The notes: generated by a model not told the origin, from the sequence alone. 64,000 nucleotides of DNA from Candidatus Binatia bacterium (GCA_046327955.1 JAXLXP010000007.1:56029-120028), one strand, 5' to 3'; positions 1 to 15,200 are shown, numbered from the stretch's first letter. Made by a program: numbers and translations.

Positions 1-646
1 CGCGCAGGAGGTCCTCGCACCAACGATCGAGCTCGGCCTCGAGCCGCTCGCGCGGCACGACCGTGTTCACGAGACCCATCTGCAGCGCCTCGTGCGCCGT
101 GTAGCGCCGGCACAGCATCCACATCTCCCGCGCCCGCTTCGCCCCGACGACCCGCGTGAGGTACGGCACGAAGTAGCCGTCGGCGGGGCTCGACACCTTC
201 GGGCCGGCCTGCCCGAAGATGGCGTTGTCCGCCGCAATCGTGAAGTCGCAGCAGTAGGCCATGTGATTCGAGCCCGCGATGCAGTAGCCCTGCACCACCG
301 CGATCACCGGCTTGCGGGAGATGCGGATCACGCGGTTGTGAGGATACCGCCAGTAGAACGCCTCGCGCAGCCCCCACTGCTCCCACTCGACGTCGCCACC
401 CGTGCCGAAGTGCTCGCCCGCCCCGGCGAGCGCGACGACGCCGATCCGCGGGTCGTGATTGGCGTCGTAGAACGCGCGGAACATCTCGTCCGCGGAGTGG
501 TTGGTGAGCGCGTTGTACTTCTCCGGCCGGTTGATCGTCACGCGCGCGACACCGCCCTCGAGGTCGCGGTGGAACTTCTTCTCGTACAGGACGTCGGTGA
601 ACTCGAGGCCGGCGCCCGTGACTGGTTCCCAGCTCGTCCAGCTCAT
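1..646 (-). CDS. Crotonase-superfamily enzyme, BadI/MenB-like subfamily (2-ketocyclohexanecarboxyl-CoA hydrolase / naphthoate-synthase type); 3' end leaves the window
   Basis: Own translation from ATG at 646: MSWTSWEPVTGAGLEFTDVLYEKKFHRDLEGGVARVTINRPEKYNALT...GTGGDV...VQGYCIAGSNHMAYCCDFTIAADNAIFGQAGPKVSSPADGYFVPYLTRVVGAKRAREMWMLCRRYTAHEALQMGLVNTVVP. This follows the BadI/MenB pattern (GQxGPKxxSxDxGYG...VGxKxARExW). It is absent from the ORF track because no stop lies in the window. ATGA overlap with the upstream stop at 643. Confidence 0.8.
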   Translation of the reverse strand, partial: MSWTSWEPVTGAGLEFTDVLYEKKFHRDLEGGVARVTINRPEKYNALTNHSADEMFRAFYDANHDPRIGVVALAGAGEHFGTGGDVEWEQWGLREAFYWRYPHNRVIRISRKPVIAVVQGYCIAGSNHMAYCCDFTIAADNAIFGQAGPKVSSPADGYFVPYLTRVVGAKRAREMWMLCRRYTAHEALQMGLVNTVVPRERLEAELDRWCEDLLR

Positions 647-1071
647 AGCGTCCCGATCACCCGCTCGGCCTCCCGCAACTCTCGCAGAAGCGCCGCCGTG
701 TCGATGGCCGTGATCCCCCGCGGCAGCGCGCCGTCGAGCCCCAGCAACGTGGACCAGATCGGGCAGGCCCAGACCGTGACGCCAGCCTCGACCGCGCGCG
801 CAATCAACGCCTTCGCGTCGAGCTGCCGTCCTTCGCCCCGTCCCATGAGCGGCAGACCCGCCGCCTTGGCGCGGTCGGCGAGCTGCAGCCGCAGCGCCTG
901 ACCGGAGAGCTCCCGCGGCCACGCGAAGGTGCCGCGCACCGCCGCCGCCAGCGCTTCCTGCGTCAGCACGACCCCGACCGCCTGCCCTGCCTTGCGGGCC
1001 TCGATCGCGGTGAGCAATCCTCCCGTCAGAGAGCTCGCCAGCGCGTCGCGCAGGATGAAGAGGAGGTCCAT
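643..1071 (-). CDS. Small DsrE/DsrF-like fold protein (function unknown)
   Basis: 142-aa ORF packed without gaps between a CoA-transferase (stop at 1072) and the crotonase (ATGA overlap). The family assignment is from general resemblance only. Confidence 0.5.
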   Translation of the reverse strand: MDLLFILRDALASSLTGGLLTAIEARKAGQAVGVVLTQEALAAAVRGTFAWPRELSGQALRLQLADRAKAAGLPLMGRGEGRQLDAKALIARAVEAGVTVWACPIWSTLLGLDGALPRGITAIDTAALLRELREAERVIGTL

Positions 1072-2268
1072 TCAGCGCTTCCTCCCCGTCCGTCCTTCTT
1101 CGACCAGCCGGGCGATCTCCGCTGGCGCGTAGCCGAGCTCGCCCAGGATCTCCGCCGTGTGCTGGCCAAAGACCGGAGGGGCGAGGCGCACGCTGCCGGG
1201 CGTCCGCTCGAGGTGGATCGGCACGCCCGTGACCTCGAGCGGCCCGAGCGTCGCGTGCTGCGTGGTCGCGACCATGCCGTTGTGGCGCACCTGCGGGTCA
1301 CGCACGACGCGCGGGAGGTCGTTCACGGGGGCGGCCATCGCGTCGGCAGCCACCAGGCGCTCCATGAGCGTGTCGCGCGGCTGTTCGCGGCAGCGCGCCG
1401 CGATCAGCTGCTCGAGCTCGTCCTCGTGCTGCAGGCGGAGCTCGATCGTACGGAAGCGGGGGTCGGACGCCCAGTCGACCTCGAGCCCCTTGCACAGGTT
1501 GCGGAAGAACTTCTCCGACGGGCACGTGAGGCAGAGGCTCTCGCCGTCCGCGCAGCGGAACACGCCCGAGGGCGCGAAATACGGGCTGCGGTTGCCGGAG
1601 CGCGGCGTCACCCACTGGTTCAGGAAGTAGTTGCCGAGCCCGGTACACTGGGCGTGGACCAGCGCGTCGAGCAGCGAGACGTCGACGCGCTGCCCCTGGC
1701 CGCTCCGGGTGCGCTCGTGGAGCGCCGCGAGCACGCCCGTCGCCACCAGGAGCGACGCCATCACGTCCACCAGGGGCACGGTGACGCGAACGGGATCTCC
1801 GTCGGCCGCGCCGTTGAGCGACAGCAGGCCGGCGAAGCCCTGGGCAAGGAAGTCGATGCCGGGACGCCCCGCGTACGGGCCGTCGGCCCCGAACGCCGTG
1901 ACCGCGACCCAGATGACGTCCGGGCGATGGGTGCGCACCTGCTCGTAGGCGATCCCGATCTTCTCGGCCGCCGCGCCGCGCACGTTGGTGATGAGCACGT
2001 CGGCCGTCTGGACGAGCCGGTGGAACGCCGCGCGCCCGGCAGGCTGCTCGAGGTCGAGCACGACGTCGCGCTTGTTGCGGTTGAGGCCGATGAACGGTCC
2101 GCGCTCGCCGTTGCGTTCGGCGCCGAGCCGGCGGCAGTCGTCGCCGGCCGGCGACTCCACCTTGATGACGTCGGCTCCGAGATCGCCGAGCAGCGTCGCG
2201 CCATACGGACCGGCGAGCATGGTTGCGACGTCGAGGACACGGATGCCGGCCAGCGGCCCGCCACTCAC
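1072..2268 (-). CDS. Family III CoA-transferase (CaiB/BaiF type), copy 1
   Basis: The real start is the GTG at 2268 (VSGGPLAGIRVLDVATMLAGPYGATLLGDLGADVIKVESP...), the canonical N-terminus of the family. GTGA overlap with the upstream stop at 2265. The 837-aa track ORF is upstream read-through. Confidence 0.9.
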   Translation of the reverse strand: MSGGPLAGIRVLDVATMLAGPYGATLLGDLGADVIKVESPAGDDCRRLGAERNGERGPFIGLNRNKRDVVLDLEQPAGRAAFHRLVQTADVLITNVRGAAAEKIGIAYEQVRTHRPDVIWVAVTAFGADGPYAGRPGIDFLAQGFAGLLSLNGAADGDPVRVTVPLVDVMASLLVATGVLAALHERTRSGQGQRVDVSLLDALVHAQCTGLGNYFLNQWVTPRSGNRSPYFAPSGVFRCADGESLCLTCPSEKFFRNLCKGLEVDWASDPRFRTIELRLQHEDELEQLIAARCREQPRDTLMERLVAADAMAAPVNDLPRVVRDPQVRHNGMVATTQHATLGPLEVTGVPIHLERTPGSVRLAPPVFGQHTAEILGELGYAPAEIARLVEEGRTGRKR

Positions 2269-3473
2269 AGAATCACCCCCTGCTCCTTGAACTCGCCGAC
2301 CTGCTCCCACGAGTAGCCGAGGGTGTCGACGAGCAGCTCCTCGGTATGTTGGCCGAGCTCCGGCCCGAGGTGCCGCACCGTACCGGGCGTACGGGCGAGC
2401 GCGACCGGGAGACCCCGGACGACCACCTGGCGCTGCACCTCCTCGCAGTGGGTCTCCACGAGGTACTGGTTCTCCCACGCCTGCGGGTCCCGTGCGAGGT
2501 CGGAGAGGTCGCAGATCGTGCTCGCCGCGAGGCCGGCCGCCCGCCAGCGCCCCGTCCATTCGCCGGCGGGGCGCCGCGCGAGAATCGTCTCGAGGCGCTC
2601 GACCAGTGCTGCCGCGTTCGCGGCGCGCGCCGGCGCGGTCGCGAACCGCGCATCGGCGGCGAGCGCCGGATCCTCGAGCGTCGCGCAGAGCCGCGTCCAG
2701 TCTGCGTCGGTGTCGGGCACGCAGAGGAACACCCAGCGGTCCTGGGTCGGGTACGTGTTCCAGAGAGCGTTGGCGGGGTGGGACCGCGACTGTTGGCGGC
2801 CGCACTCCTCGGCGCCGGCGAGATAGCCCTGCAACGTCGGCGCCGCCATGAAGAGCTGCGCGCCGTAGAGCGAGGCGTCGAGGAACTGGCCGCGGCCCGT
2901 CTGCCGGCGCGCGTGCAGCGCGATCATGATGCCGAGCGCGCACATGAGCCCGCCCATCGCGTCGCCCGAGCCCATGCCGACGTAGATCGGCGGCTGTCCC
3001 GGCTCGCCGAGCCGGGGCATGAGCCCGGTGAGAGCCTGCACGGTCATGTCGAAGGCCGGCTTCACGCTCTGCGCGCGCGGACCGTAGCCGCTCGCGACGG
3101 CGTAGACCAGACGCGGGTTGATCGCCGCGAGCTTGTCGTACGCGAGGCCCCACTTCTCGAGCGCCGCCTTGCCGAGGTTCGAGAGGAAGACATCCGACAC
3201 CTCCACCAGCTTGTAGAGGATGTCCCGCCCGGCGGGCTTGTTGAGGTCGACTGCCAGACTCTTCTTGTTGCGGTTGATGACGAGGAAGTACTGGTTCCAG
3301 TCGCCGACCGGCAGGGCCTTGATCGAGCGCACCCCGCGGCCGAGGTCGCCGCCCTGGGGCCGCTCGACGTGGATCACCTCCGCGCCGAAGTCGGCGAGGT
3401 GCTGCCCCGCCACCGGCCCCTGGAACCAGACGGAGAGGTCGATGACACGGATCCCATCGAGCACGCCTGCCAT
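2265..3473 (-). CDS. Family III CoA-transferase (CaiB/BaiF type), copy 2
   Basis: ATG at 3473: MAGVLDGIRVIDLSVWFQGPVAGQHLADFGAEVIHVERP...; 402 aa. The rest of the 1007-aa track ORF is read-through. Confidence 0.9.
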   Translation of the reverse strand: MAGVLDGIRVIDLSVWFQGPVAGQHLADFGAEVIHVERPQGGDLGRGVRSIKALPVGDWNQYFLVINRNKKSLAVDLNKPAGRDILYKLVEVSDVFLSNLGKAALEKWGLAYDKLAAINPRLVYAVASGYGPRAQSVKPAFDMTVQALTGLMPRLGEPGQPPIYVGMGSGDAMGGLMCALGIMIALHARRQTGRGQFLDASLYGAQLFMAAPTLQGYLAGAEECGRQQSRSHPANALWNTYPTQDRWVFLCVPDTDADWTRLCATLEDPALAADARFATAPARAANAAALVERLETILARRPAGEWTGRWRAAGLAASTICDLSDLARDPQAWENQYLVETHCEEVQRQVVVRGLPVALARTPGTVRHLGPELGQHTEELLVDTLGYSWEQVGEFKEQGVIL

Positions 3474-3478
3474 CCCGA

Positions 3479-4661
3479 TCACCCCGCGACGACGCCGTCG
3501 CGCTGGAGGACGGCGATCTGTTCCTCGGTGTAGCCCAATGTCTCGTGGAGGACCGCCGCCGTGTGCTGGCCCACGAGCGGCGCACGCCGGTCGAGGCGCG
3601 CCGGCGTGTCGGTCATGAAGATCGGGAACCCGAGCATCGCGAGCGGCCCGAGGCTCGGGTCCGCGAGGTCGAGCACGTAGCGGTTGCGGCGCGCGTCCTC
3701 GTCGTGCGCGGGATAGTCGTAGCCCTCGATCACGTCGGCCGACATCTGCCGCTCCTGGAAGACGCGGCGCCAGTGCGCCGCCGGCCGCTGGCGGAACCCC
3801 TCGTCGAGACGGCGGATCAGCTCGAGGCGGTTGGCGTCGCAGCGCTTGTCGTGCGAGTCGAAGCGCGGATCGTGCACGTCGAGCCCGACCTCCGGGGCGA
3901 GCAGCGGCCACCACCGGTCGGTGTCGGGCATGGTGAGCGCGACCCAGCGGTCGTCGGACGTCGGATAGAAGTTGCCGCTCATCGGGTTGCCGGCATCGAG
4001 ACGCGCCACGGGGTGCAGGAACCGTTCGCCGCCGATGGCCAGGTACGCCTGCACGTCGAGACTCGCGCCGTACATGTTGCCGGCGAGCAACGACGTGTCG
4101 ACCTGCTGGCCCTCGCCCGTCGTGCCGCGATGGTAGAGCGCGAGCATCACCCCGAGCGCGAGCATGACCGTCGTACATCTGCCCGTGGCCCGGGTACACC
4201 GGCGGCTGCCCCGGCTGGCCGAGCACGCCCATGAGGCCGGTCCGCGCAGCCGCGAGCTCGTCGAGCGCGGGCGCTTCCCGATCCGGGCCCTGGGGACCGA
4301 GTCCCGAGCCGCGCGCGTACACGACGTCGGCACGCAGCGCGGCCACGCTCGCGTAGTCGAGCCCTTCGTCGCGCAGCTGGGTCTCGGGCTGGTCGGTGAG
4401 CACGACGTCGGCCTTCGCTGCCAGCGCTCGGACCAGCTCGCGCCCGCGGGCGCCGGCGAGGTCGACGGCGAGCCCGAGCTTGTTGCGGTTGGCGAGCTCG
4501 TGGCGATGGTTCCACGCCGGCGTGCTCCGCGGCCGTGCCACGGGCAGGCGCTCGACGCGGAGCACCCGCGCGCCGAAGTCGCCGAGCATCCCCGCCGCGA
4601 GCGACGCCCAGAACTCCGTCGTCAGGTCGAGGACGACGATCCCGTCCAGCCCTTTGGCCAC
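3479..4661 (-). pseudogene. Family III CoA-transferase, copy 3, split by a 1-nt frameshift near 4163-4178
   Basis: The N-terminal half (GTG 4661: VAKGLDGIVVLDLTTEFWASLAAGMLGDFGARVLRVERL...GQPPVYPGHGQMYD) is in one frame. The C-terminal half (TTVMLALGVMLALYHRGTTGEGQQVDTSLL...QRDGVVAG) is in another. The span is 1183 nt, which is not a multiple of 3. Alignment to copy 2 (GMGSGDAMGGLMCALGIMIALHARR) places the shift at catgaccgtcgtacat. Confidence 0.8.
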
Positions 4662-4675
4662 CGCGTGCCCCCCCG

Positions 4676-5218
4676 CTACTTGGACCACTCCCGAACGACG
4701 TCGAGTGTCCGGTCGACGAACTCGTGCGGATCGGGCAACGGCCGGCCGAGCCAGTCCCGATAGAACGTGTCGAGGTCGGGGAGGAACTCGAAGTCGGGCG
4801 GGCAGCCGCGCGGCACGGCCTCGACCTCGAGCTGGGTACCGCAGCCCGGGCAGTAGTACTCGCGGAGCTGGATCCACGTCGGGTCGGGCTGCTCGCGACC
4901 CCGGTAGACCTCGCTCAGCGCCGCCTCGGAGTCGCGCACGTGGATCAGCGCGGCAAGCTTCCAGTTGACGCGGTAGTCGCCGAACTCGTGCCCGCAGCGG
5001 CACTTGACGATGCGCTCCCGCCCCTTCTGCACGATCGAGAGGGCCGGCGTGAGCGGCAGCAGGATCCGCTCCTTCCACGGCACGCGGCTCTGCAGGATGC
5101 GGACCCACTTGTCGAAGCGGTCGGCGTCCTTGGGCGCCTTCATGACCTCCTGAACGCGCCGCCAGGGGAGCTTTCCGTCGACCAGCTGCTCGATCTCGTG
5201 GATGTCGTACTCGGCCAT
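4676..5218 (-). CDS. Acetone-carboxylase gamma-subunit-like Zn-binding protein
   Basis: ATG at 5218: MAEYDIHEIEQLVDGKLPWRRVQEVMKAPKDADRFDKWVRILQ...KCRCGHEFGDYRVNWK...YYCPGCGTQLEVE. It has the size and paired Cys motifs of the AcxC family and sits directly downstream of the HyuB-like gene. Confidence 0.8.
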   Translation of the reverse strand: MAEYDIHEIEQLVDGKLPWRRVQEVMKAPKDADRFDKWVRILQSRVPWKERILLPLTPALSIVQKGRERIVKCRCGHEFGDYRVNWKLAALIHVRDSEAALSEVYRGREQPDPTWIQLREYYCPGCGTQLEVEAVPRGCPPDFEFLPDLDTFYRDWLGRPLPDPHEFVDRTLDVVREWSK

Positions 5219-5235
5219 CGCGGCTCCTCGCTGCG

Positions 5236-7428
5236 TCAGAACGTGAAGTCGTCGGGCAGGTTCCAGAAGGCCCGCAGCTCCGTCGCATATCCCGGCGAGA
5301 GCTGCATCGCGGTCCGCCACATCTCGGTCACCGGCGGGGCCATGTTCTCGCCCGCCCGGATCTTCTCGCGCTCCTGCCGCCACCAGTCGCGGAACGGCAC
5401 GCCGCGCTGCTTGCGCGCCGCGCGAATCTCGTCGCGACGGCGGGCCGTGGCCGCCGCGTCGACCGTCCACTGCCCCGCGCCGTCACGGCGGGCGACGACC
5501 CCATGGACCTCGAGCGCCACGCGGTCCCGCGTGAAACCGTTCTCGAGGTCCGTCCGCACCAGCTCCGGGTCGCGCTCGATCGGGTCACCCTGGGCCTGCG
5601 CGCCGGAAACGGGATGGATCACGACGTCGTACTCGTGCAGCGCCTCGGGCACGACGAACGGTGCGATCGCGTTCGTCTCGAGTACCTTGGCGTGGATGTT
5701 CTCCGCGAGGTCCGGCTTCTCGGGGTCACCGCGCTCGTGCACCAACGGCTTCTGCGCCTCGATGAGCGCCTTGACGTTCGTGCCGCTCGCGAAGCTCGGC
5801 CGATCCGGCACCGCGGGGTACGCGCCGTACATCCCGTGGTTCGCCACCACCTTGCTCCGCATGCCGGCGCAGCCGCACTGATACTCGATCCCCGGCGTGT
5901 TCTTGATGAGCCACACCGCCGCGTGGCCGAGACCACCGCGGAACTTCCCGTACCCGCCCGAGTCGGCCTCGAGGTTCCGGCCGAGGTAGACGATCGGGTA
6001 GTAGAGCTCCGTCACCTCCGCGTTCCCGAAGTCCGCGTTGGGCGTGTAGATGCACCACGCGCTGTTCTCGCCGTCCGCCATGCCGCGCGCGGGCGCGCCG
6101 TTGCACGCCTGCTCGAGGGTGAGGCCGGCCGTGTACATCCCGTACTGGTTCGTGCCCGAGAACTCGGCCGTGAGCGTCGTCGCCGCCCCTGCGGCCATCT
6201 CCTCGACGAAGCCGCGGCTGAAATAGAAGCGGCCGAACACCTCGTAGAGACCGCTCAACCAGCACACGCCCGGTGCCCAGGCCACGCCGGAGGACGCGAA
6301 GTAGTTGACCGGGTACGGGTTGGCCCACGACCCGGCCGGCGGCGTCTCGAGCTGCCAGGCCGCGACGCAGCCCCAGTTGAACATGTCGAAGCCGACGATG
6401 TGCGAGTAGCCGTTCATGAGCGCGGAGATGATCGCCGGCGGCGTGATGTTCTCGCCGAACGGCACCCAGCCGCTCGCGCCGGGCAGCGCGAAGGTGACCT
6501 TCGCGTCGGCTCGGATCGTGACGTCCATCGGCAGGTGGAACAGGCAGTCGATGTTCTGGCTCGGCAGGATCACGCGCTTGCCCGCCATCGCCAGGTCCTT
6601 GAAGTTCGACTTCCGGATCCGGCCCGGAACCGTCTGGGACCTCACGCGCGCCACCGCGTAGCGGCGGCTGTCCTCGATGTACTCGCGCGCCGCGTCGCGG
6701 AAGAAGTCGACGCCGTACTTGTCGATGAGCGCGACCAGCCGGTCACGGAGCGTGAGGCAGCCCGCGAGCCGCCCGCGCGCGTCGCCCATCACCCAGTCGG
6801 GCACCCGGGTGCACGAGCGCATCCGTTTCTCGTACCATTTGTAGAACCGGTCGTGCTCGCCGACGCGCTCCATCGTCACCGGAACGCCGTCGCTGAAGCA
6901 GTCGGGGTTGATGAAGCCGATCGAGCCCGGCAGCACGAAGCCGGAGTCCATCACGTGCGTGACCGAGCCCGCCCACGCGACCAGCTCGCCCTTGTAGAAG
7001 ATCGGCACCGTGGTCTGGAAGTCGGGGGTGTGGATGCCGCCGTAGTGCGGGTCGTTGTTCTCGAAGATGTCGCCGGGGCGGATCCCGGGATCCTCCTCGT
7101 AGCCCTCCTCGACGTACCGTCGCAGCAGCATCGAGATGAGCCCGGGATGGGAGACGATCCCCTTGGATGCGCAGATCGCCTCGCCCGTCGGCAGGTGCAG
7201 GCTCCACAGCGCGTCGCCGCCCTCGGCGGCGATCGGCGAGGACGAGACCTTGCAGCCGACGACCCAACCCGCGTCGCAGATGTTGAGGAGGATGTGCCAC
7301 ATGGCTTCGTACGTGCCCGGGTCCTCCTCCTTGCGACGCATGCGCTCGAGGCCGAACAGATGCCCCGTCTCGCGCAGCCCCCGGTCGTTCCGCTCGAGCT
7401 GCTCCTTCAGCGAAAGCGTGCCGCTCAC
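5236..7428 (-). CDS. Hydantoinase B/oxoprolinase-family subunit, acetone-carboxylase alpha-like
   Basis: 730-aa ORF with a 4-nt overlap with the HyuA-like gene. The order HyuA-HyuB-gamma matches acxABC. Confidence 0.85.
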   Translation of the reverse strand: MSGTLSLKEQLERNDRGLRETGHLFGLERMRRKEEDPGTYEAMWHILLNICDAGWVVGCKVSSSPIAAEGGDALWSLHLPTGEAICASKGIVSHPGLISMLLRRYVEEGYEEDPGIRPGDIFENNDPHYGGIHTPDFQTTVPIFYKGELVAWAGSVTHVMDSGFVLPGSIGFINPDCFSDGVPVTMERVGEHDRFYKWYEKRMRSCTRVPDWVMGDARGRLAGCLTLRDRLVALIDKYGVDFFRDAAREYIEDSRRYAVARVRSQTVPGRIRKSNFKDLAMAGKRVILPSQNIDCLFHLPMDVTIRADAKVTFALPGASGWVPFGENITPPAIISALMNGYSHIVGFDMFNWGCVAAWQLETPPAGSWANPYPVNYFASSGVAWAPGVCWLSGLYEVFGRFYFSRGFVEEMAAGAATTLTAEFSGTNQYGMYTAGLTLEQACNGAPARGMADGENSAWCIYTPNADFGNAEVTELYYPIVYLGRNLEADSGGYGKFRGGLGHAAVWLIKNTPGIEYQCGCAGMRSKVVANHGMYGAYPAVPDRPSFASGTNVKALIEAQKPLVHERGDPEKPDLAENIHAKVLETNAIAPFVVPEALHEYDVVIHPVSGAQAQGDPIERDPELVRTDLENGFTRDRVALEVHGVVARRDGAGQWTVDAAATARRRDEIRAARKQRGVPFRDWWRQEREKIRAGENMAPPVTEMWRTAMQLSPGYATELRAFWNLPDDFTF

Positions 7429-9563
7429 GACTTGCTCCCCTTCTTCTCGAGCCAGTAGATGCCGCGCTCGTCGATCCGCGCACGCCAGCCACCGGGGACG
7501 AACAGCGTCGTGTTCGGCGCCTCGACCACCGCGAGCCCGTCGATCACGTTCCCGGGCCGCAGCTCGTCCATCTCCCAGAGCCGCGCGTCACCCCAGCGTC
7601 CGCCCTCGAAGACCGGCCGCGTCCCCTTGGAGGCCTTCTTGGCCGGCTCCGGCGCCTGGAGGTCGTAGGTGACGACCTGCGGCTTCACGGTCTGCACCTG
7701 CGCGATGACGCTCACCTCGCTGGTGAGGTAGGTCGGCTGCGGCGGCCGGCCAGCGAGCGTGAACATCTTGCCGAAGATCTCCTCGAAGCGGGCGAGCAGC
7801 TTGTCGACGTCCGCGTCCGTCTCGAGCCGCGCCACCGGGGATTCGACCTCCACGTCCTCGAGCTGGCCGTAGTACTTGATGTAGGCCATGTGCCGCAGCG
7901 AGATCTGGTCGCGCCGGAAGCCCTCGGCGAGCAGCTCTTTGAGCAGCTCGTCTTCGAGCTGGCGCCACGCCCCGCCGATGACCTGCGCCGCCTGCAGCTT
8001 GCTGCGCGGGTCGAGGGGCGTGACCATCGCCGAGACGCTCTTGTGGCGGCGGTGGGCGTAGTCCATGCACGCGCCGCCCCAGGCCGAGAACGCGGCCGCA
8101 TGCGGCGCGGTCGCCACGCCCTTCCACGGGAAGTCGCCCGCGTAGCCGACGAGGTGCATCGGCCCGGCGCCGCCGTAGCCGAGCAGCACGTAGTCGCGGA
8201 GGTCGTAGCCGAGCATGAGCGAACGCACGAGGTGCTCGCGCATCAGCACGTTGACGAGGTTCACGCACTGTTCGGCGGCAACGTAGGGGTCGAGCCCGAG
8301 CGGCTTCGCGACCAGCTCGGTGAAGACCCGCAGCGCCTTCTCCTTGTTCACCTTGACGCGGCCGCCGAGGTAGTAGTCCGGGTTGATCACGCCGAGCAGC
8401 AGGTCGCAGTCGCAGATGGTCGGCGTCTCGTTGCCGGTCTCCTGGAAGACCGGGCCGGGCGTACCACCGGCGCTGTCGGGGCCCAGCTTGATGCGTTTCG
8501 TGTGCGGGTCGAGGCGGATGTACGTGCCCGTGCCCGCGCCGATCGAACGGATGTCGAGCATCGGCACGTTCACGAACATCTGCATGAACGCCGGCTCGCG
8601 ATCGATCGGCAGGATGCCGGCCGTGATGCAGCCGGCGTCGAAGCTCGTCCCGCCCATGTCGGAGCAGACCATGTTCTCGATGCCGAGTGCCTGCGCGAGG
8701 TAGTGCCCGCCCATGAGGCCGCCCACCGGTCCCGACATGACCGTCTCGAACAGGCGCTTGTAGCGGATGTTGGTGACGCCGCCGTAGCAGAGCACGGTCT
8801 TGAGCGAGCGGTCGTAGCCGCAGTCCGCGAGCTTCTTCTCGACCGTGAGGAACACCTTGCGCGCGGGCTCCGCCGCGTAGGCCTGGATGACCGTCGCGTT
8901 CGCGCGGGAGATCTCGCGCTGCACCGGGGCCACTTCGCTCGAGATGACGACCGGGATCGTCCGCCCGCTCTTGCGGATCGCGTCCTCGGCGATCTCCCGA
9001 GCCCGCTGCTCGTGCGCCGGGTTCGTGAACGACTGGAGAAAGACGATCGCCAGGGACTCGATGCCCTGCGCGAGGAGCTCGTCGACCGCCCGCACGACCT
9101 CGTGCTCGTAGAGCGGGATCACCGCCTTCCCGAACATGTCGATGCGCTCGGTCACGCCACGCGTGAGCGACCGCGGCACGAGCGGTGCGCCGTGCTTGCG
9201 GTACTGCATGTGCGTGACCTCGGGCCAGTCGAAACCGATGAACGTCTGCCGGCCACGCCCCTGAACGATCACGTCCTCGAAGCCGCGCGTGACGATCAAG
9301 CCGGTCTTGAGCCCGTCGAGGTTGATGAGGGAGTTGAGCATCGCCGTGCCGGCGTAGATCACCGTCTCGACGTTGCCGCAGACCTCCTTCTCCGGCTTGA
9401 GGTCCCAGTACGACAGCGCGTCGACCAGCGACTCCATGTAGCCGACGCTCTCGTCGTAGCGCGTCGTCGGGGCCTTGCCGATGACGAACCGGCCCTTCTC
9501 GTCGACCACGATGACGTCCGTCATGGTCCCACCGGCATCGGACGCCACGAGATAGCGCGTCAT
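7425..9563 (-). CDS. Hydantoinase A/oxoprolinase-family ATPase subunit, acetone-carboxylase beta-like
   Basis: 712 aa; the N-terminus MTRYLVASDAGGTMTDVIVVDEKGRF is the ASKHA-type phosphate-1 motif of HyuA proteins. Confidence 0.85.
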   Translation of the reverse strand: MTRYLVASDAGGTMTDVIVVDEKGRFVIGKAPTTRYDESVGYMESLVDALSYWDLKPEKEVCGNVETVIYAGTAMLNSLINLDGLKTGLIVTRGFEDVIVQGRGRQTFIGFDWPEVTHMQYRKHGAPLVPRSLTRGVTERIDMFGKAVIPLYEHEVVRAVDELLAQGIESLAIVFLQSFTNPAHEQRAREIAEDAIRKSGRTIPVVISSEVAPVQREISRANATVIQAYAAEPARKVFLTVEKKLADCGYDRSLKTVLCYGGVTNIRYKRLFETVMSGPVGGLMGGHYLAQALGIENMVCSDMGGTSFDAGCITAGILPIDREPAFMQMFVNVPMLDIRSIGAGTGTYIRLDPHTKRIKLGPDSAGGTPGPVFQETGNETPTICDCDLLLGVINPDYYLGGRVKVNKEKALRVFTELVAKPLGLDPYVAAEQCVNLVNVLMREHLVRSLMLGYDLRDYVLLGYGGAGPMHLVGYAGDFPWKGVATAPHAAAFSAWGGACMDYAHRRHKSVSAMVTPLDPRSKLQAAQVIGGAWRQLEDELLKELLAEGFRRDQISLRHMAYIKYYGQLEDVEVESPVARLETDADVDKLLARFEEIFGKMFTLAGRPPQPTYLTSEVSVIAQVQTVKPQVVTYDLQAPEPAKKASKGTRPVFEGGRWGDARLWEMDELRPGNVIDGLAVVEAPNTTLFVPGGWRARIDERGIYWLEKKGSKS

Positions 9564-9580
9564 CGAGGCCCCCGCATCGA

Positions 9581-9596
9581 GAACGAACGTTCGTTC
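9581..9596. promoter_or_regulatory. Perfect 16-bp palindrome GAACGAACGTTCGTTC, candidate operator of the carboxylase operon
   Basis: Lies 18-33 nt upstream of the ATG at 9563, at the start of an otherwise non-coding ~300-bp upstream region. Confidence 0.4.
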
Positions 9597-9859
9597 TGTA
9601 CCATGGCAACGAAGACTCCCCGCTCAGTCACTCGACCCGACCTCGCTGGTCAGCTGCAGCGGCCGCGCGCGCGCGGCCCCGGCCCGTGGAGACGCCCATC
9701 CCCACGTGCCCATCGCCGTTCCGCTGCGAGGCATGGATGAGTGGCGTGTGCGTCATCGATTCGTCTGCCGCGCGGTGGCGGCATCGGCCGCGGACCATCG
9801 CATTGTCGGGACGTGAACGCAATGGTCGAGCGCACAACCGGCATGGCGCATCCGGGTCC

Positions 9860-10465
9860 CTAACGGCGCGGCGGGCGGCCGAGGAGCCGGCGGAAGAACC
9901 GGACCACGGCCTCCCACGCGACCCGCAGGATCACGGGCAGGATATGGAGGGGCTCCGCCTTCGCGGGCATCGTGGCGATCGGCGCCGCGGTCCCACTGGC
10001 AGACGCCGCCTCGGCGGCCGCGAGCTGCTCTTGCAGACGCGCCACGAATTGTTTGAAGAGCTGCTGCGACACGCCTTGGATCATGCCCCGGCCGACCTGC
10101 ATGATCCGCCCCGTCAGATCGACGCTCGCCTCGGCGACGACTTCCGTCTGCCCGTCGGACACCGTGCGCATCCGGCTCGACATCGTGCCCTTGGCGAGTC
10201 CGCCGCCGGTCTCCTTGCCCTCGGCCAGCATCTGGACCGTGTGCGCCTGCTCGTCGACCTGCTCGAGCCGCACCCGCCCCTTGTAGCTGGCCGTGATGGC
10301 CCCGACCTTCACCTTGACGGAGCCGACGAAGGTGCGATCGTCGACGATCTCCTCGAGCTCCGCGCCTGGCAGGCACGTGACCACGCGGCGCGGGTCCATG
10401 ACGAACGCCCATACCGCGGCGATCGGGGCGCGCACCTGAAAGGTCTCTCGAATCTCGACGGCCAT
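9860..10465 (-). CDS. coxG: CoxG-family SRPBCC protein (carbon monoxide dehydrogenase subunit G-like)
   Basis: 201 aa: MAVEIRETFQVRAPIAAVWAFVMDPRRVVTCLPGAELEEIVDDRTFVGSVKVKVGAITASYKG..., the typical CoxG N-terminal pattern. Confidence 0.8.
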   Translation of the reverse strand: MAVEIRETFQVRAPIAAVWAFVMDPRRVVTCLPGAELEEIVDDRTFVGSVKVKVGAITASYKGRVRLEQVDEQAHTVQMLAEGKETGGGLAKGTMSSRMRTVSDGQTEVVAEASVDLTGRIMQVGRGMIQGVSQQLFKQFVARLQEQLAAAEAASASGTAAPIATMPAKAEPLHILPVILRVAWEAVVRFFRRLLGRPPRR

Positions 10466-10483
10466 CGACTGGAGCCCCGCCCC

Positions 10484-11128
10484 TTAGCCTTCGGCCTTCG
10501 GGCCGTCAATCATCGCGAGGTAGTCCGCCCACGTATCGACGTCGCGAGGGGGTGCCCCCTCGCACGGCACCTCCACCACCCACTCGGGATGCGCCACAAT
10601 CAGGGCCCGCGCCCCCTGGTCGCCCTCGAGGCGGGCCACGTCCTCCCAGATACGGCGCGCGAGCAGCACCGGGTGCCCAGGCACCCGCTCCGCCCCGACC
10701 GTCCAGACCGGCCGAACGACCGCCGCGCGCGTCGTGTGAAACGCCGCCACGACCGCGCCGACGACCTCGGCCTGCACGCCCGGCTGGTCGCCGAGCAGGA
10801 TCGCCGCCGCGTCGGCGCGCGCGCTGGCCGCACGCAGGCCGACCCGCAGCGAGGAGCTCTGGCCGCACGCGTGCTCCGGATTCACGACGACGCGGACGCG
10901 GCGTCCCGCGGGCAGCCGCAATCCGGCCCGGATCTCGTCCGCCCGATGGCCGAGCACCACGACGATCTCGTCGATCGGCGCGCGCAGCGCCTCGTCGAGG
11001 ACGACCTGCAGCAGCGACCGTTCCCCGACTTCGAGGAGCTGCTTGGGGCGCCCCATCCGCGTCGACGAGCCGGCAGCGAGGACGATCCCCGAGACGACGG
11101 GGCGCGCGACGACCTCAGGTCCGGCCAT
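10484..11128 (-). CDS. MobA-like NTP transferase (molybdenum cofactor cytidylyltransferase MocA-like)
   Basis: ATG at 11128: MAGPEVVARPVVSGIVLAAGSSTRMGRPKQLLEV...LLGDQP. It carries the LAAGxSxRMG nucleotide-binding signature. Confidence 0.8.
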   Translation of the reverse strand: MAGPEVVARPVVSGIVLAAGSSTRMGRPKQLLEVGERSLLQVVLDEALRAPIDEIVVVLGHRADEIRAGLRLPAGRRVRVVVNPEHACGQSSSLRVGLRAASARADAAAILLGDQPGVQAEVVGAVVAAFHTTRAAVVRPVWTVGAERVPGHPVLLARRIWEDVARLEGDQGARALIVAHPEWVVEVPCEGAPPRDVDTWADYLAMIDGPKAEG

Positions 11129-12197
11129 GAATCGCACCCGCCGCCGTACTGAGCGGCCCGCCTTCACGCCCATGGCGCGCGGCGACCACCTCGGCCAGGA
11201 TCGCGAGCGCGATCTCCTCGGGCACGCGCCCACCCAAATCGAGGCCGATCGGCGCGCGCACCCGCGCCAGCTCGGCCTCGGAGACACCGGCGGCGCGGAG
11301 CTCCACCCGTCGGCGTTCGAGCGTGCGCCGACTTCCCATCATCCCGACGTACCGCGCGCCGGCGCGCACCGCATGCAGAACGGCCGGGACGTCGAACTTC
11401 GGATCGTGCGTCAGCACGACGACGAAGGACCAGCCGTCGAGGCCGAGCGCGTCGAGCGCCTCGCCGGGTGGCGTGCGCAGAATCGCGTCGGCCGCCCCGA
11501 ACCGCTCCGCGGTCGCGTAGGCGCTGCGCGGATCGACGACCGTCACGCGAAAGCCGAGCGATGCGGCCAGGCGGCAGAGCGCCATCGCGGTGTGCGTCGC
11601 GCCGACGATCACGAGGTGCGACGGCGGCGGGAAGGCCTCGACGAAGATCCGCGCCTCCACGCCATGCCAGGCGCGGCTCAGCACCCGCGTCCCGCCCTCC
11701 GGCAGCAGGCCGCGCGCGGCGGCGGCCACGTCCGCATCGAGCTCGCGGTCGAGCGCTCCGACGTCGGCCCCGCCCTCGAGCAGCGCGAGCTTCCGTCCGA
11801 GCAGCGCCGCCGGCTCGAGCCCGACCGCCAGCGCGGCGGGCCGCTGGTGCTCGAGCGCCGACCGCACCGCCTGCCAGGCCGGCTCGGCGACGAACGGCTC
11901 GATCAGGACCTCGATCGTGCCGCCACAGCTGAGCCCCACCTCGAACGCGACCTCGTCGGCGATGCCATAGGTCGCCATGGCTGGGGCGCCGCGGTCGAGC
12001 ACCTGCATGGCGCGCTCGAACACGTCGCTCTCCACGCAGCCGCCGCTGACCGAGCCGGCCATCCTGCCGCTGCGCGTGACGAAGAGCCGCGCGCCGGGCA
12101 GCCGGGGCGCCGAGCCGCGCATCGCCACCACGGTGGCGAGCGCGATCGCTTCGCCGTTCGCCTGCCAGGCATCGACGTCGGCCAGGATCTCCTGCAT
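11115..12197 (-). CDS. XdhC/CoxI-family molybdoenzyme maturation factor
   Basis: ATG at 12197: MQEILADVDAWQANGEAIALATVVAMRGSAPRLPGARLFVTRSGRMAGSVSGGCVE...HLVIVGATHTAMAL...DPKFD, the XdhC_CoxI plus Rossmann pattern. Confidence 0.85.
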   Translation of the reverse strand: MQEILADVDAWQANGEAIALATVVAMRGSAPRLPGARLFVTRSGRMAGSVSGGCVESDVFERAMQVLDRGAPAMATYGIADEVAFEVGLSCGGTIEVLIEPFVAEPAWQAVRSALEHQRPAALAVGLEPAALLGRKLALLEGGADVGALDRELDADVAAAARGLLPEGGTRVLSRAWHGVEARIFVEAFPPPSHLVIVGATHTAMALCRLAASLGFRVTVVDPRSAYATAERFGAADAILRTPPGEALDALGLDGWSFVVVLTHDPKFDVPAVLHAVRAGARYVGMMGSRRTLERRRVELRAAGVSEAELARVRAPIGLDLGGRVPEEIALAILAEVVAARHGREGGPLSTAAGAIHGRT

Positions 12198-12262
12198 GCG
12201 CCGCCGGTTCTCTTCCCGCCCCGCCGGGCGCGAGTCAACCGCCCCGCGCCGCCCGGCGTGCG

Positions 12263-15200
12263 CTATGTCGCCAACTGCGCGGCGGCGCGGCGGAGGGCGT
12301 CGGCGAGCACGTCGTGGAGAGCAGCGGCACACTCGTCCGACAGCGGCCCCGACGTCCGCCGACCGGCGCGCTCGACGGCGCGCAGCGTCCGCCGCAGTAG
12401 ACTGGTCGCCTCCTGCAGGAGCCGCACTCGCCGCCGCCCGGTCGCGCCGCGGGCGCGGGCCGCCCGGTCTCCGGCCTTCCGAAAGCGCAACGCGATCGTG
12501 CGCGGCACGAGATCGCCCGAACACGACGCCACGGGCAGGCCGCGATCGAACACGCAGGTCACGGCGTCGAGGCCGGTCTGCACGCGATCGACCGCGGCAC
12601 ACGTGGGGACGGTGCCGGAGCACGTGTCGGCCACGTCGCACGCATCGACGGCCGGGCGACACACCGTCGCGGGTGACGCGAAGGCGTCGCCGGGGCACTC
12701 GGCAGAGCGCCCGTCGCAGGTCTCCGCGACGTCGCAGGGGCCGGCGGCCGGGCGACACGTCGTCCCGACTGGCATTGGCTCGCACCCCTGCCGCCGGTCG
12801 CAGGCGCCAGTCAGGCAATCGCCGAGGCAGGAAGCGGCGCCTCCCGGGACGCAAACGTCGCCGTCGCCCCGACAGTGGTCGCCGACGGTGCACGCGTCGC
12901 CGTCGTCGCACGCCGCGACGGACGGCCGCGGCACGCATCCCATGAGCGCGTCGCACGTGAGACACTCCCCGACACAGGGCAGCGGCGCACCACCGACGCA
13001 CCGGCCGGCGGCGTCGCAGTGGTCGTCCACGGTGCAGGCATTCCCGTCGTCGCAGGGAGTGTCCGCCGGCCGGTCCACGCACCCGCGGGGGTCACAGAGC
13101 GTGGTCTGCGCCGCGACGTGTCTCCCGCTGGCGTCGCGCTTCGTGACCTCCAGGGTAAGCGGCGCGAAGCAGTCGAAGGGCATCCGGAACGCGAGCATGG
13201 TGGGTGTCACCGCGTCCGGGTAGAGCGTGGCCAGCAGGGCTCCGTCCGTCGTCCAGATCCGGATGCGGTTCCCGCCTGTCGCCTGGTTGCGCTGCCGGAC
13301 GGCGGGGTCGTCGATCGCGCACGGGCAGGCGCCGTCGACGCACGGCCCCGTGGGACAGACGCCCTCCGGCGTACACGCCGGCAGCGTGGCACAGGCCGAC
13401 GCGTCACCGGCCGGCAGCGCGTTACCCTCGATCGCATTGAAGCCCTCGCCGAACACGCGCACGACGTCGCTCACCCGCGGCCGCCCCGGGCTCACGCGCT
13501 CGAGCACGAGCGTCTCGGCGCGCGGACCGACCGGGCTCCCGAGATCGATGGGCGCGAGCAGTGGCGCCACGTCGTGCGCCAACACCGCCGCGACGTCGCA
13601 CGCGGCACCGGTCCCGCAGTGCTCCCACTGGTTTCCGACCGCCGGTACGGTCGCCGCGTCCGCGGTGAAGAGGTTCGCACCCGCCGCCGTGTTGCGATTG
13701 CCGCTGAACGCGTTGTGGCCGGGAGCGGCCGCCGTCCCGTAGGTGACGTCCGGGGCCTGATGACCGGCGGCCTGCGCGGTAACCGCCCCGAACCCGCGCG
13801 GGAACGATCCGGCCAGACATTGGGTCGCCGCCACGCAGTCGGGATCGACCGTCCCGTCGGCGCGCAGACAGCAGTCGTCGACGGTGCCGCACGGCTTCTC
13901 CTCGTCGGCGGGCGCGGGGCTGCACGTCCCGGTGAGGCCGGGGTACCGGTTGCAGACGAGCGCCACACCCCGGAAGCTCGCGGACGGGACGACGTCGGCG
14001 GACCCATCGACCGTGGTCTCGACGCGACTGCCCGCGAACTGGTTGTCCGCGACATAGTCCTCGTGGAAGTCCCCGACCGCGTTGTCCGCCACCGACAGCC
14101 CGCGGCCGCCCGAGAACCGGACGACGTTGCCGTCGGTGACGAGCGTGCTCCGTTCCACCGTTCCGGCGACAGAGAGCCCGTTCTGCGCCTGCCCCGGAAG
14201 GTTGTGCTGCACGACGTTCTCACGCGCCACGACGTGCCCGCCGAGCGTGCTCTGGACGCCGCCGTTGCGGTTGTCGTGCAGGCAGCTCTGCGCGATCGTC
14301 GTGTGGGCGCCGAAGTCGACCTTGACGCCCTTGTCGGCCGCGCCGGTGATGCGACTCGACTCGATCACGTTGTCGGCGGACCCCACATCGTCGGGCTGAC
14401 CGGCGTCGTCGTCCGTGCCGACGGCGTCGCCGCAGGTCGGGCCGAAAATGACCGCCTGCGCGATGCGGTTGCGCCGAGCCTTCGGCCCCGTGATCCCGAG
14501 CGTGTCGACCTGACACGGCGGCACGGGGTCGGGTTTGCGGCTCCCCTCGAGCGTGAGGCCCTGCAGGACGTTGTCGCTCCCGTACAGGCGCAGGAGCCGC
14601 CGCCCGCACGTATCCACCGACAGGATCACGCCGCCGGGGGCGGCCGCGTGGTCGAGCGCGTCGACGACGATCCGGCTGCCCGTGAAGCAGAGTCCCGCCG
14701 TCGTGCCGTCGGCGACGCCATCGGGCCGGCACTGGTTGCGGCTGTCGTCGAGCGCGCACGGGCGCTGCATCAGATAGACGCGCTGTGGATTCGACGCGCC
14801 CGGGAACGCACTCGGGTCGAAGGTCACCAGCGCCGGTCCCGGGTTGTCTCGCGTATACGCGGCCGCCTGGTCGAGCGCCGACTGCAGGTCGGCGGCCGTG
14901 GTGCCGCCGACGACGAAGGTGCGCGGGTAGGCCGTCCACACCAACGCGTTCGAGACCTCGACCGGCGATCCGGCCACGAGCACGCCGCGCTGCGCCTGTT
15001 CCTGCGGCGACGAACCCGGCACCGTCACGCGGATTCGATGCACCCATGCTCCCGGCTGCAAGCCGCCCATGGTGCCGCAGCGGACGACGCCGCTGCCGGT
15101 GCAGGTGAGCGTCTCGCGGTACGACGTCGCCCCGTCGCCCTGGCAGCCGATCGCGTCGGCCGCGACCTCACCCTCGAGCGCCACCTCGACGATCCCCGCC

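Follow-up and report, generated by a model that had tools for sequence, protein, structure and literature searches.

A widely conserved gene cluster in uncultured bacteria joins an acetone-carboxylase-type enzyme to family-III CoA-transferases and a MenB/BadI-like crotonase, with a possible role in oxygen-independent degradation of alicyclic ketones

Introduction

A stretch of 64,000 nucleotides in the draft genome of a Candidatus Binatia bacterium (C35:56029-120028, hereafter the window) begins with eight genes, encoding the three subunits of an acetone-carboxylase-type enzyme, three family-III CoA-transferases (CT1 to CT3), a small protein of 142 residues (p142) and a crotonase related to MenB and BadI, which form the middle of a catabolic gene cluster of ~21 kb. 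The enzyme families are known ones, whereas the way in which they are joined is undescribed and widely conserved, and a tentative reading, to which we give somewhat less than an even chance, is that it breaks down an alicyclic ketone, probably substituted or multi-ring, without oxygen. No published description of this cluster was found in a literature search; Dehalococcoidia homologues have been annotated in one paper as possible acetone carboxylase only.

The draft genome, with 71% G+C, comprises 4.27 Mb in 37 contigs; its completeness is 99.7% and its contamination 1.2%. The contig beyond the window start was read as locus L001, which supplies the genes downstream of the crotonase. Relatives of the carboxylase alpha subunit were collected by a pattern scan with one genome per species, which gave 116, and the best 80 of these were used as loci. 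As each related locus has a flank of at most 10 kb, all co-occurrence counts given below are lower bounds, in a sample defined by alpha. Orthologues in these loci were sought by tblastn with 20 cluster proteins at 50% identity or more, and were counted over the 49 loci of 15 kb or longer.

The ketone carboxylase

Scores against PDB structures and NCBIfam models are the basis on which the carboxylase was placed. An earlier sequence-only reading of this DNA had proposed an enzyme of the acetone-carboxylase type, and the scores bear this out for every subunit. The alpha subunit reaches 389 bits with acetone carboxylase, 141 with acetophenone carboxylase, 82 with N-methylhydantoinase (7hk5) and 63 with caprolactamase (6yra); the corresponding values for beta are 554 (full length), 363, 206 and 287 bits, while gamma gives 155 bits (full length) with acetone carboxylase and 38 with acetophenone carboxylase. 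Instead of falling with the oxoprolinases or hydantoinases, the subunits thus score highest with Acx, and the small subunit is AcxC-like. In addition, H133, D136 and H158 of alpha, invariant in 11 clade members, align without gaps with residues 150, 153 and 175 of 5m45_A, positions that we take to be the Mn ligands His150, Asp153 and His175 of AcxA (X. autotrophicus numbering), and gamma, aligned with 5svb_C, keeps the CxCGH...CPxCG zinc motif.

The resemblance to characterized enzymes is nevertheless distant. Identity of alpha to Acx is 32-34%, for the PDB entries as well as for plasmid-borne Acx of Paracoccus, Methylorubrum and haloarchaea, compared with 62-86% inside the clade across phyla, 67-100% for the 120 best database homologues and 62-84% for the related loci. 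Because identity to Acx is ~33% against 62-86% within the clade, with the highest scores still those for Acx, the sequences place the carboxylase in the acetone-carboxylase lineage as a separate, uncharacterized clade, found here only in metagenome-assembled genomes (MAGs).

The NCBIfam Acx models gave no match for the carboxylase subunits, and the Apc and Cap models gave scores far below their cut-offs (ApcC 387 bits, cut-off 1500; ApcD 157, cut-off 1500; ApcB 39, cut-off 250; CapA 382 and CapB 73, cut-offs 1000). Identity as an acetophenone carboxylase was rejected on these sub-threshold scores and on the presence of one HyuA-like gene only, against five subunit types with two HyuA-like ones and an epsilon. 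Caprolactamase, 5-oxoprolinase and N-methylhydantoinase were likewise rejected, given that a gamma subunit is present and that the scores are below those for Acx.

The CoA-transferases

All three CoA-transferases foreseen by that reading belong to the CoA_transf_3 family (PF02515), CT2 and CT3 covering profile positions 1-366 and CT1 in two pieces across a frameshift; what it had missed is that CT1 comes from a clade without the catalytic Asp and is frameshifted here. The two halves of CT1, an N-terminal one of 160 codons and a C-terminal one of 229 codons, lie in different frames, and the aligned blocks are separated by 13 nucleotides (nt), compared with 15 nt in the intact orthologues of L002, L003, L011 and L076, which amounts to a net deletion of 2 nt that is not a homopolymer slip.

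Each paralogue was aligned with the 14 best-scoring of its own orthologues from the related loci (47 for CT1, 44 for CT2 and 36 for CT3). CT2 has GSGD in 14/14 orthologues, at the place where the PDB alignment puts the catalytic Asp, and CT3 has an Asp (V/I-D) in all orthologues aligned. CT1, on the other hand, shows GQ(M/T)Y(T/S)x with a two-residue deletion and no Asp in 14/14, the Asp of the reference PDB structure facing a Tyr. From these alignments, CT1 is a conserved Asp-less paralogue. It probably serves as a non-catalytic partner subunit, and as such it offers a case in which the idea of pseudo-enzyme subunits among family-III transferases can be put to the test.

Family-III CoA-transferases are interlocked dimers, and PDB entry 9fn0 holds two different benzylsuccinate CoA-transferase subunits, both of which match CT2; by analogy, CT1 and CT2 may therefore form a heteromer in which all active sites are of one kind. 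CT3, whose best NCBIfam match is succinate--glutarate CoA-transferase (247 bits, cut-off 750), would be a second enzyme, possibly one that shifts CoA intramolecularly on a dicarboxylate. A CT1-CT2 heteromer and a separate CT3 would account in part for the need for three paralogues, for which no explanation had been offered before.

The crotonase

The crotonase follows BadI and MenB rather than ordinary enoyl-CoA hydratases, as had been suspected. Its NCBIfam scores are 233.2 and 206.5 bits with MenB models (cut-offs 380 and 342.7) and 224.8 bits with BadI (TIGR03210, cut-off 467.6), compared with at most 126 bits for ordinary enoyl-CoA hydratases; likewise, it gives ~209 bits with MenB in the PDB and 119 bits with the best ordinary crotonase-family structure. 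It carries SSPADG in place of the MenB active-site motif GSFDGG, and a Phe where the aligned MenB has a Tyr near the C-terminus. The motifs SPADG, EWExWGLR and YPDWFD are invariant in 18 orthologues.

A MenB function for this gene was considered and rejected. Its scores stay below the cut-offs, the adjacent genes are p142 and CoxM with no men gene among them, also beyond the window edge, and contig C33 bears another gene that clears the MenB cut-offs, with 381.8 and 347.4 bits. The sequence comparisons thus make the crotonase a third lineage beside MenB and BadI, for which a (retro-)Claisen reaction on a CoA ester would be the likeliest chemistry.

The molybdenum hydroxylase and amidohydrolase module

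The notion that the eight genes make up the whole unit, an eight-gene operon, did not hold. The genes are present and tightly packed, but CT1 is broken, the crotonase runs off the window and the gene string continues on both sides; the eight genes are embedded in a molybdenum (Mo)-hydroxylase, Amidohydrolase-2 and SCPx/DUF35 cluster that was out of sight in the sequence-only reading. Downstream of the crotonase, on the same strand, come CoxM, CoxS, CoxL, an Amidohydro_2 gene, an SCPx-type thiolase, a DUF35 protein (ChsH2-type OB/Zn-ribbon), a second enoyl-CoA hydratase (ECH2) and a thiolase, and upstream of beta, again on the same strand, stand CoxG, a MocA-like gene and XdhC. Flanked by XdhC-MocA-CoxG on one side and CoxMSL on the other, the carboxylase/CoA-transferase/crotonase block thus separates the maturation genes of one Mo hydroxylase from its structural genes.

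CoxM, with FAD_binding_5 and CO_deh_flav_C domains, has 289 residues and no cysteine; CoxS has Fer2 and Fer2_2 (2x[2Fe-2S]); and CoxL, the molybdopterin subunit of ~790-835 residues, has Ald_Xan_dh_C, MoCoBD_1 and MoCoBD_2 and is directly followed by the Amidohydro_2 gene (Pfam 2.9e-30). The active-site loop of CO dehydrogenase reads AYxCSFR in form I and AYRGAGR in form II, and as neither occurs in the 835-residue CoxL, both forms were rejected. CoxL scores 518 bits with TIGR02416 (cut-off 991) and 414 with TIGR03194, 4-hydroxybenzoyl-CoA reductase (cut-off 995); its best PDB matches include quinoline 2-oxidoreductase at 446 bits, and the alpha subunit of 4-hydroxybenzoyl-CoA reductase reaches 304.

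The scores with 4-hydroxybenzoyl-CoA reductase raise the thought of a phenolic substrate, for which the carboxylase would form a hydroxy-aryl carboxylate, the CoA-transferases an aryl-CoA, and the Mo enzyme would remove the hydroxyl group reductively, as 4-hydroxybenzoyl-CoA reductase does. We regard this as scarcely credible. The FAD subunit of that reductase has a Cys-containing insertion for an extra [4Fe-4S] cluster, which the Cys-free CoxM of ordinary length cannot hold, and the enzyme was ruled out on this ground; moreover, CO dehydrogenase and quinoline oxidoreductase score higher for CoxL, and neither benzoyl-CoA reductase genes nor box genes turned up in the vicinity.

The match to quinoline 2-oxidoreductase agrees with a route for lactams or N-heterocycles like that of anaerobic indoleacetate degradation (iaa), along which the Mo hydroxylase would yield a lactam, the HyuAB-like protein would open it with ATP, and CoA-transferases and beta-oxidation would finish; a Mo hydroxylase, a hydantoinase-like enzyme and a family-III CoA-transferase reportedly occur together in the iaa cluster described by Ebenau-Jehle et al. 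in 2012. Such a route is distinctly improbable all the same, for a full AcxC-like gamma is present, the carboxylase-type Mn ligands are conserved, the alpha/beta scores with lactam-type hydrolases (63/287 and 82/206 bits) are far below those with acetone carboxylase (389/554), and inspection of the cluster turned up neither a deaminase nor an amidase nor a B12 mutase.

The combination of the Mo enzyme with the amidohydrolase recalls anaerobic steroid degradation, in which ring A is processed by a xanthine-oxidase-family Mo enzyme (1-testosterone hydratase/dehydrogenase, AtcABC) and then by a newly discovered Amidohydrolase-2 beta-diketone hydrolase, SRAH (Jacoby et al. 2025, PMC11780191). Ring opening is succeeded by the action of a CoA ligase or transferase and an acyl-CoA dehydrogenase, and then of an acetate-releasing hydrolase, an enoyl-CoA hydratase and, lastly, an aldolase; the ring-A product is a methyl ketone acid, and the acetate-releasing hydrolase and the opening of ring B are still open questions (PMC11780191). 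The published ring-A-opening clusters have been reported from beta- and gammaproteobacteria only, and the main text of that paper makes no mention of a carboxylase (PMC11780191). Similarly, MhyADH of Alicycliphilus is a Mo enzyme of the same type, for 2-cyclohexenone, and adjoins a KstD-like gene (PMC3692508).

The genome holds a paralogous module on contig C32 (C32:849000-872000; L103, L104), with a KstD-like flavoprotein, CoxL (70%), Amidohydro_2 (67%), SCPx and DUF35 (59%), and also an acyl-CoA dehydrogenase, MaoC, two CoA ligases, a LysR regulator, an S15-type hydrolase and, indicative of an anaerobic lifestyle, a glycyl-radical enzyme plus activase. Beside the C32 CoxL paralogue there is no CoxM or CoxS gene. 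In Steroidobacteraceae MAGs, the carboxylase clade stands beside MaoC, NMO (IpdC-like) and a 596-residue family-I CoA-transferase-like gene (IpdAB-like); as no IpdAB-like gene was found in the Binatia genome, a steroid substrate is not indicated for this organism. A Steroidobacteraceae MAG also has a CoxL homologue (62%; L060:18756-21503) in a 916-residue open frame, ~100 residues longer than usual, which may carry a fused N-terminal domain.

Conservation and spread

The best 80 of the 116 alpha relatives all come from MAGs, assigned to Myxococcota, Binatia, Chloroflexota/Dehalococcoidia, Acidimicrobiia, Steroidobacteraceae, Halieaceae and other Gammaproteobacteria, and the cluster is common to uncultured bacteria of at least five phyla (Myxococcota, Binatia, Chloroflexota, Acidimicrobiia, Gammaproteobacteria). 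The linkage of carboxylase, CoA-transferases and crotonase is conserved, as the sequence-only reading would require: the gene right after gamma is CT1 in 42 of the 61 loci with room for one, and CoxM in 7. Among the 49 long loci, CT1 and CT2 are found in 36, CT3 in 31 and the crotonase in 21; CoxG, just upstream of beta, in 17, CoxM and CoxS in 15, Amidohydro_2 in 12, and CoxL as well as SCPx/DUF35/ECH2 in 11. The XdhC family precedes beta in 7 related loci, and the block between XdhC-MocA-CoxG and CoxMSL recurs in L002, L031, L072 and L076. Recurrent extra neighbours are acyl-CoA dehydrogenases, the alpha and beta subunits of electron-transfer flavoprotein (ETF), Hdr-like ETF oxidoreductase, NMO flavoproteins, luciferase-like proteins, CoA ligases and MFS transporters.

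In Acidimicrobiia the order is CoxG, beta, alpha, gamma, CoxMSL, Amidohydro_2, SCPx, second gamma, DUF35 and ECH2. Five Acidimicrobiia genomes whose loci have no CT1-CT3 orthologue or crotonase carry a crotonase orthologue (70-73%) 8-12 kb past the locus. The gamma-like gene between SCPx and DUF35, full-length and 65-76% identical, lies at L053:18867-19403 and likewise in L049, L054, L058, L061, L064, L075 and L079; it is a second copy in 7 of these 8 loci and the sole gamma match in L075.

An orthologue of the amidohydrolase (61-77%) was present in 10/10 other carrier genomes tested, usually within 20 kb. Closer to the host, conservation fails: alpha and the amidohydrolase were not found in 18 same-family genomes, and among 12 same-class genomes three had only an alpha of 29-34%, one of them with a 71% amidohydrolase as well. 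A plasmid search returned distant homologues only (alpha 32-34%, amidohydrolase at most 33%). The neighbourhood is thus patchily distributed in the host lineage, where the nearest relatives lack it, yet conserved in distant carriers of five phyla, a distribution that fits horizontal spread.

This distribution also bears on another explanation, in which the enzyme is an ordinary carboxylase of acetone or butanone and the catabolic genes around it have nothing to do with it. The enzyme has the subunit set and metal ligands of acetone carboxylase, and alpha orthologues are publicly annotated as 'acetone carboxylase alpha subunit'. Still, this explanation seems very unlikely to us, in view of the low identity to characterized and plasmid-borne Acx (32-34%, against 62-86% within the clade), of a linkage to CoA-transferases, crotonase and Mo enzyme that is conserved in five phyla, and of the lack of any family-I acetoacetate CoA-transferase, acetoacetyl-CoA synthetase or AcxR-type activator nearby.

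Proposed pathway

Gene content, family placement, conserved metal ligands, the absence of Asp from CT1 and conserved linkage are observed, and from them we infer every chemical step, the order of the modules and the substrate. In the degradation of an alicyclic ketone, the Mn-dependent, ATP-driven three-subunit carboxylase would add CO2 beside the keto group to give a beta-keto acid, which a heteromer of CT2 and the Asp-less CT1 would convert into the beta-ketoacyl-CoA, CT3 acting as a second transferase or as an intramolecular CoA shifter. The MenB/BadI-like crotonase would then cleave the beta-keto thioester by retro-Claisen (BadI-type) hydrolysis. CoxMSL and Amidohydrolase-2, by analogy with 1-testosterone hydratase/dehydrogenase and the ring-A hydrolase and with MhyADH, may turn a cyclic enone into a 1,3-diketone and open it hydrolytically, and the enoyl-CoA hydratase, SCPx/DUF35 and the thiolase would remove C2 or C3 units. 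To our knowledge, acetone, butanone and acetophenone are the only ketones for which a carboxylase has been described. The wiring first suggested, from ketone through beta-keto acid and CoA ester to hydrolytic cleavage, remains plausible but was incomplete in leaving out the Mo/Amidohydrolase-2 module. Cyclohexanone may conceivably feed the BadI step in this way; the crotonase stays below the cut-offs of BadI and MenB alike.

Several observations weigh against this scheme. No enzyme of the cluster is the equivalog of a characterized one, every NCBIfam score being far below its cut-off, and the crotonase, in which SPADG takes the place of the MenB active-site motif GSFDGG, may catalyse a different reaction. 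Neither a KstD-like gene nor an acyl-CoA dehydrogenase is part of the cluster itself. The likeness of the Mo enzyme and the amidohydrolase to AtcA, MhyADH and SRAH (WP_154715975) was observed at the family level, and a homologue search from the Steroidobacteraceae amidohydrolase paralogue gave MAG proteins and no named steroid degrader. Moreover, with a thiolase and SCPx present, the beta-ketoacyl-CoA could be cleaved thiolytically, and with CT1 frameshifted the route may be impaired in this genome.

The order of the modules may also be the reverse. The Mo enzyme and Amidohydrolase-2 would first open an enone/1,3-diketone to a delta-oxo acid with a methyl or ethyl ketone; the carboxylase would act on this open-chain ketone, the CoA-transferases would activate the 3-oxo-dicarboxylate, and SCPx/DUF35 or the thiolase would cleave it, leaving the crotonase to act elsewhere, for example in releasing acetate from a vinylogous beta-keto thioester. 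In favour of this order, 2-methyl-branched 3-oxoacyl-CoA is a suitable substrate for SCPx-type thiolases, the characterized relatives of the carboxylase act on open-chain methyl ketones, and in the Acidimicrobiia loci no CoA-transferase interrupts the string of carboxylase genes, CoxMSL, Amidohydro_2, SCPx, DUF35 and ECH. The order also agrees with the methyl ketone acid published as ring-A product and with an acetate-releasing hydrolase that has no assigned gene (PMC11780191). Yet the commonest layout, with CoA-transferases and crotonase after gamma (42/61), suggests that the activated product is consumed by the crotonase, and plain beta-oxidation could dispose of an unsubstituted delta-oxo acid without any expense of ATP. 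We therefore hold the reversed order to be rather unlikely, although it deserves more weight than any of the routes set aside above.

Returning to carboxylation of the ring ketone, it may be speculated, with little confidence, that the carboxylase/CoA-transferase/BadI-like block is a general, oxygen-independent means of opening the saturated cyclohexanone ring left after the Mo/Amidohydrolase-2 module. In steroid-degrading Gammaproteobacteria it would then be the ring-B step, converting STA (a three-ring ketone) and CO2 into an HIP-CoA-like product and propionyl-CoA, which matches the reported net loss of a C2 unit.

If the proposed pathway is true, it would represent an ATP- and CO2-dependent, oxygen-independent opening of alicyclic rings and would bear on how terpenoid, steroid-like and carboxyl-rich alicyclic organic matter is turned over, and on the ring-B step that is still unsolved in anaerobic steroid degradation. 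The carriers are uncultured Myxococcota, Binatia, Dehalococcoidia, Acidimicrobiia and Gammaproteobacteria of soil, sediment and the deep ocean.

Gene layout, p142 and regulation

The features of the cluster inside the window are collected in Table 1. Profile searches uphold the family assignments made beforehand (Hydantoinase_A, Hydantoinase_B, Acetone_carb_G, three CoA_transf_3 and a MenB/BadI-type crotonase), and the eight minus-strand genes are as tightly packed as described, with junctions that are 4-nt overlaps or gaps of 0-17 nt. Overlaps of 4 nt join beta to alpha, CT2 to CT3 and p142 to the crotonase (ATG at 646); alpha and gamma are 17 nt apart and gamma and CT1 14 nt; CT3 and p142 abut directly; and CT1 and CT2 are separated by 5 nt, or overlap by 4 nt with an alternative CT2 start, GTG at 3482. 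The stop codon of the crotonase lies 220 nt past position 1, the gene being cut by the window edge.

Table 1. Features of the catabolic cluster within the window (positions counted from its first nucleotide)
Feature	Position	Strand	Evidence
XdhC/CoxI-type molybdenum-cofactor insertion chaperone	11115..12263, start approximate	-	Pfam XdhC_CoxI 3.6e-26, XdhC_C 1.3e-43
MocA/MobA-like nucleotidyltransferase, cytosine-dinucleotide form of cofactor	10484..11101, start approximate	-	Pfam NTP_transf_3 2.8e-36
CoxG-like SRPBCC protein, accessory of CoxLMS-type Mo enzymes	9860..10465	-	Pfam COXG 2.8e-20
Perfect 18-bp palindrome AGAACGAACGTTCGTTCT, candidate operator	9580..9597	.	Sequence
Carboxylase beta, HyuA-like, nucleotide-binding, 712 aa	7425..9563	-	Three Hydantoinase_A domains (including N- and C-terminal); PDB 5m45_B / 5svb_B
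Carboxylase alpha, HyuB-like, Mn site, 730 aa	5236..7428	-	Hydantoinase_B; acetone carboxylase alpha 389 bits
Carboxylase gamma, AcxC-like zinc protein, 180 aa	4676..5218	-	Pfam Acetone_carb_G 1.6e-37; 5svb_C 155 bits
CT1, family-III CoA-transferase paralogue of Asp-less clade, frameshifted at 4169-4181	3479..4661	-	CoA_transf_3 in two pieces
CT2, family-III CoA-transferase with catalytic Asp (GSGDAMGG), 402 aa	2265..3473	-	CoA_transf_3 full length
CT3, family-III CoA-transferase with catalytic Asp (LVDVM), 398 aa	1072..2268	-	CoA_transf_3 3.8e-118
p142, small protein, predicted DsrE/DrsE_2-like fold, 142 aa	643..1071	-	Structure match only
MenB/BadI-like crotonase, first 215 of 288 codons in window	1..646	-	NCBIfam and PDB scores

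The small protein p142 had been called DsrE-like, a label that modelling suggests at the level of the fold only. It has no Pfam match at E 0.01 (PF02635 and PF13686 included) and no NCBIfam match at 1e-5, while its Atlas structure model matches DsrE/DrsE_2 clusters with a TM score of 0.81 and a feature score of 0.87, which is the level of a lead; a single-sequence AlphaFold model has a pLDDT of 42. Because its orthologues (59-64% identity) occur in only two related loci, L002 and L076, p142 is not a core part of the cluster.

The palindrome of 18 base pairs (bp) sits 16 nt upstream of the beta ATG. Genome-wide, only two copies exist at up to two mismatches, sharing an identical 16-bp core, and the second (C35:43473-43490; L001:3445-3462) lies ~22 kb away in the intergenic region between the divergent NMO and CoA-transferase-4 genes. 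Scrambled palindromes of the same composition gave 0 matches in 17/20 trials. This second location suggests that one regulator controls both ends of the region, the two operons being a putative small regulon. No regulator gene was found near the cluster, and a scan of 9400-12300 for sigma-70 promoters and terminators found nothing.

The wider surroundings include an NMO-type flavoprotein, ETF alpha, a further SCPx-like gene, a further crotonase and, on the plus strand, two additional family-III CoA-transferases. The two extra CoA-transferases stand in tandem at L001:3671-6228 (C35:43698-46255) and bring the total to five paralogues within 25 kb. After the thiolase, at L001:6246-7370 (window -9754 to -8630), a 374-residue secreted-type repeat protein is encoded, with a signal-peptide-like N-terminus and repeated GANG(I/L)AE motifs; it has no Pfam match and is not conserved in the related loci.

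Comparison with known systems

With AtcABC and SRAH of steroid degraders and with MhyADH, compared by family and gene order, the cluster shares a three-subunit xanthine-oxidase-family Mo enzyme that adjoins an Amidohydrolase-2. As in the AtcABC and SRAH setting, an enoyl-CoA hydratase and an SCPx/DUF35 pair (of aldolase or thiolase type) follow, with CoA-transferases nearby. A KstD-like flavoprotein, such as adjoins MhyADH, is encoded here in the paralogous C32 module. A difference is that the genome has no IpdAB-like gene.

The Bbs system offers a second parallel. As with BbsEF, two adjacent family-III paralogues suggest a heteromeric transferase, and of the two different subunits in 9fn0 CT2 matches chain B with 166 bits and chain A with 85. 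The Bbs beta-oxidation set includes BbsAB, a DUF35 protein and an SCPx-type thiolase; the SCPx of the cluster matches BbsB with 119 bits, and a DUF35 protein is present. Unlike Bbs, this cluster has no glycyl-radical synthase, although there is one in the C32 module.

BadI and MenB are the best-scoring families for the crotonase, which has the full-length crotonase fold; it differs from them in falling below both curated cut-offs, in the SSPADG motif and in the Phe that replaces Tyr.

The closest relatives of the carboxylase are AcxABC of Xanthobacter autotrophicus (5svb) and Aromatoleum aromaticum (5m45). The same three subunits, encoded here in the order beta, alpha, gamma, align over their full lengths, and the residues at AcxA 150/153/175 and the CxCGH...CPxCG motif of gamma are kept. 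In contrast to AcxABC, there is no acetoacetate-activating enzyme and no sigma-54 activator nearby, an 18-bp palindrome being found instead, and the carboxylase is linked to family-III CoA-transferases and a MenB/BadI-like crotonase, often together with a Mo hydroxylase.

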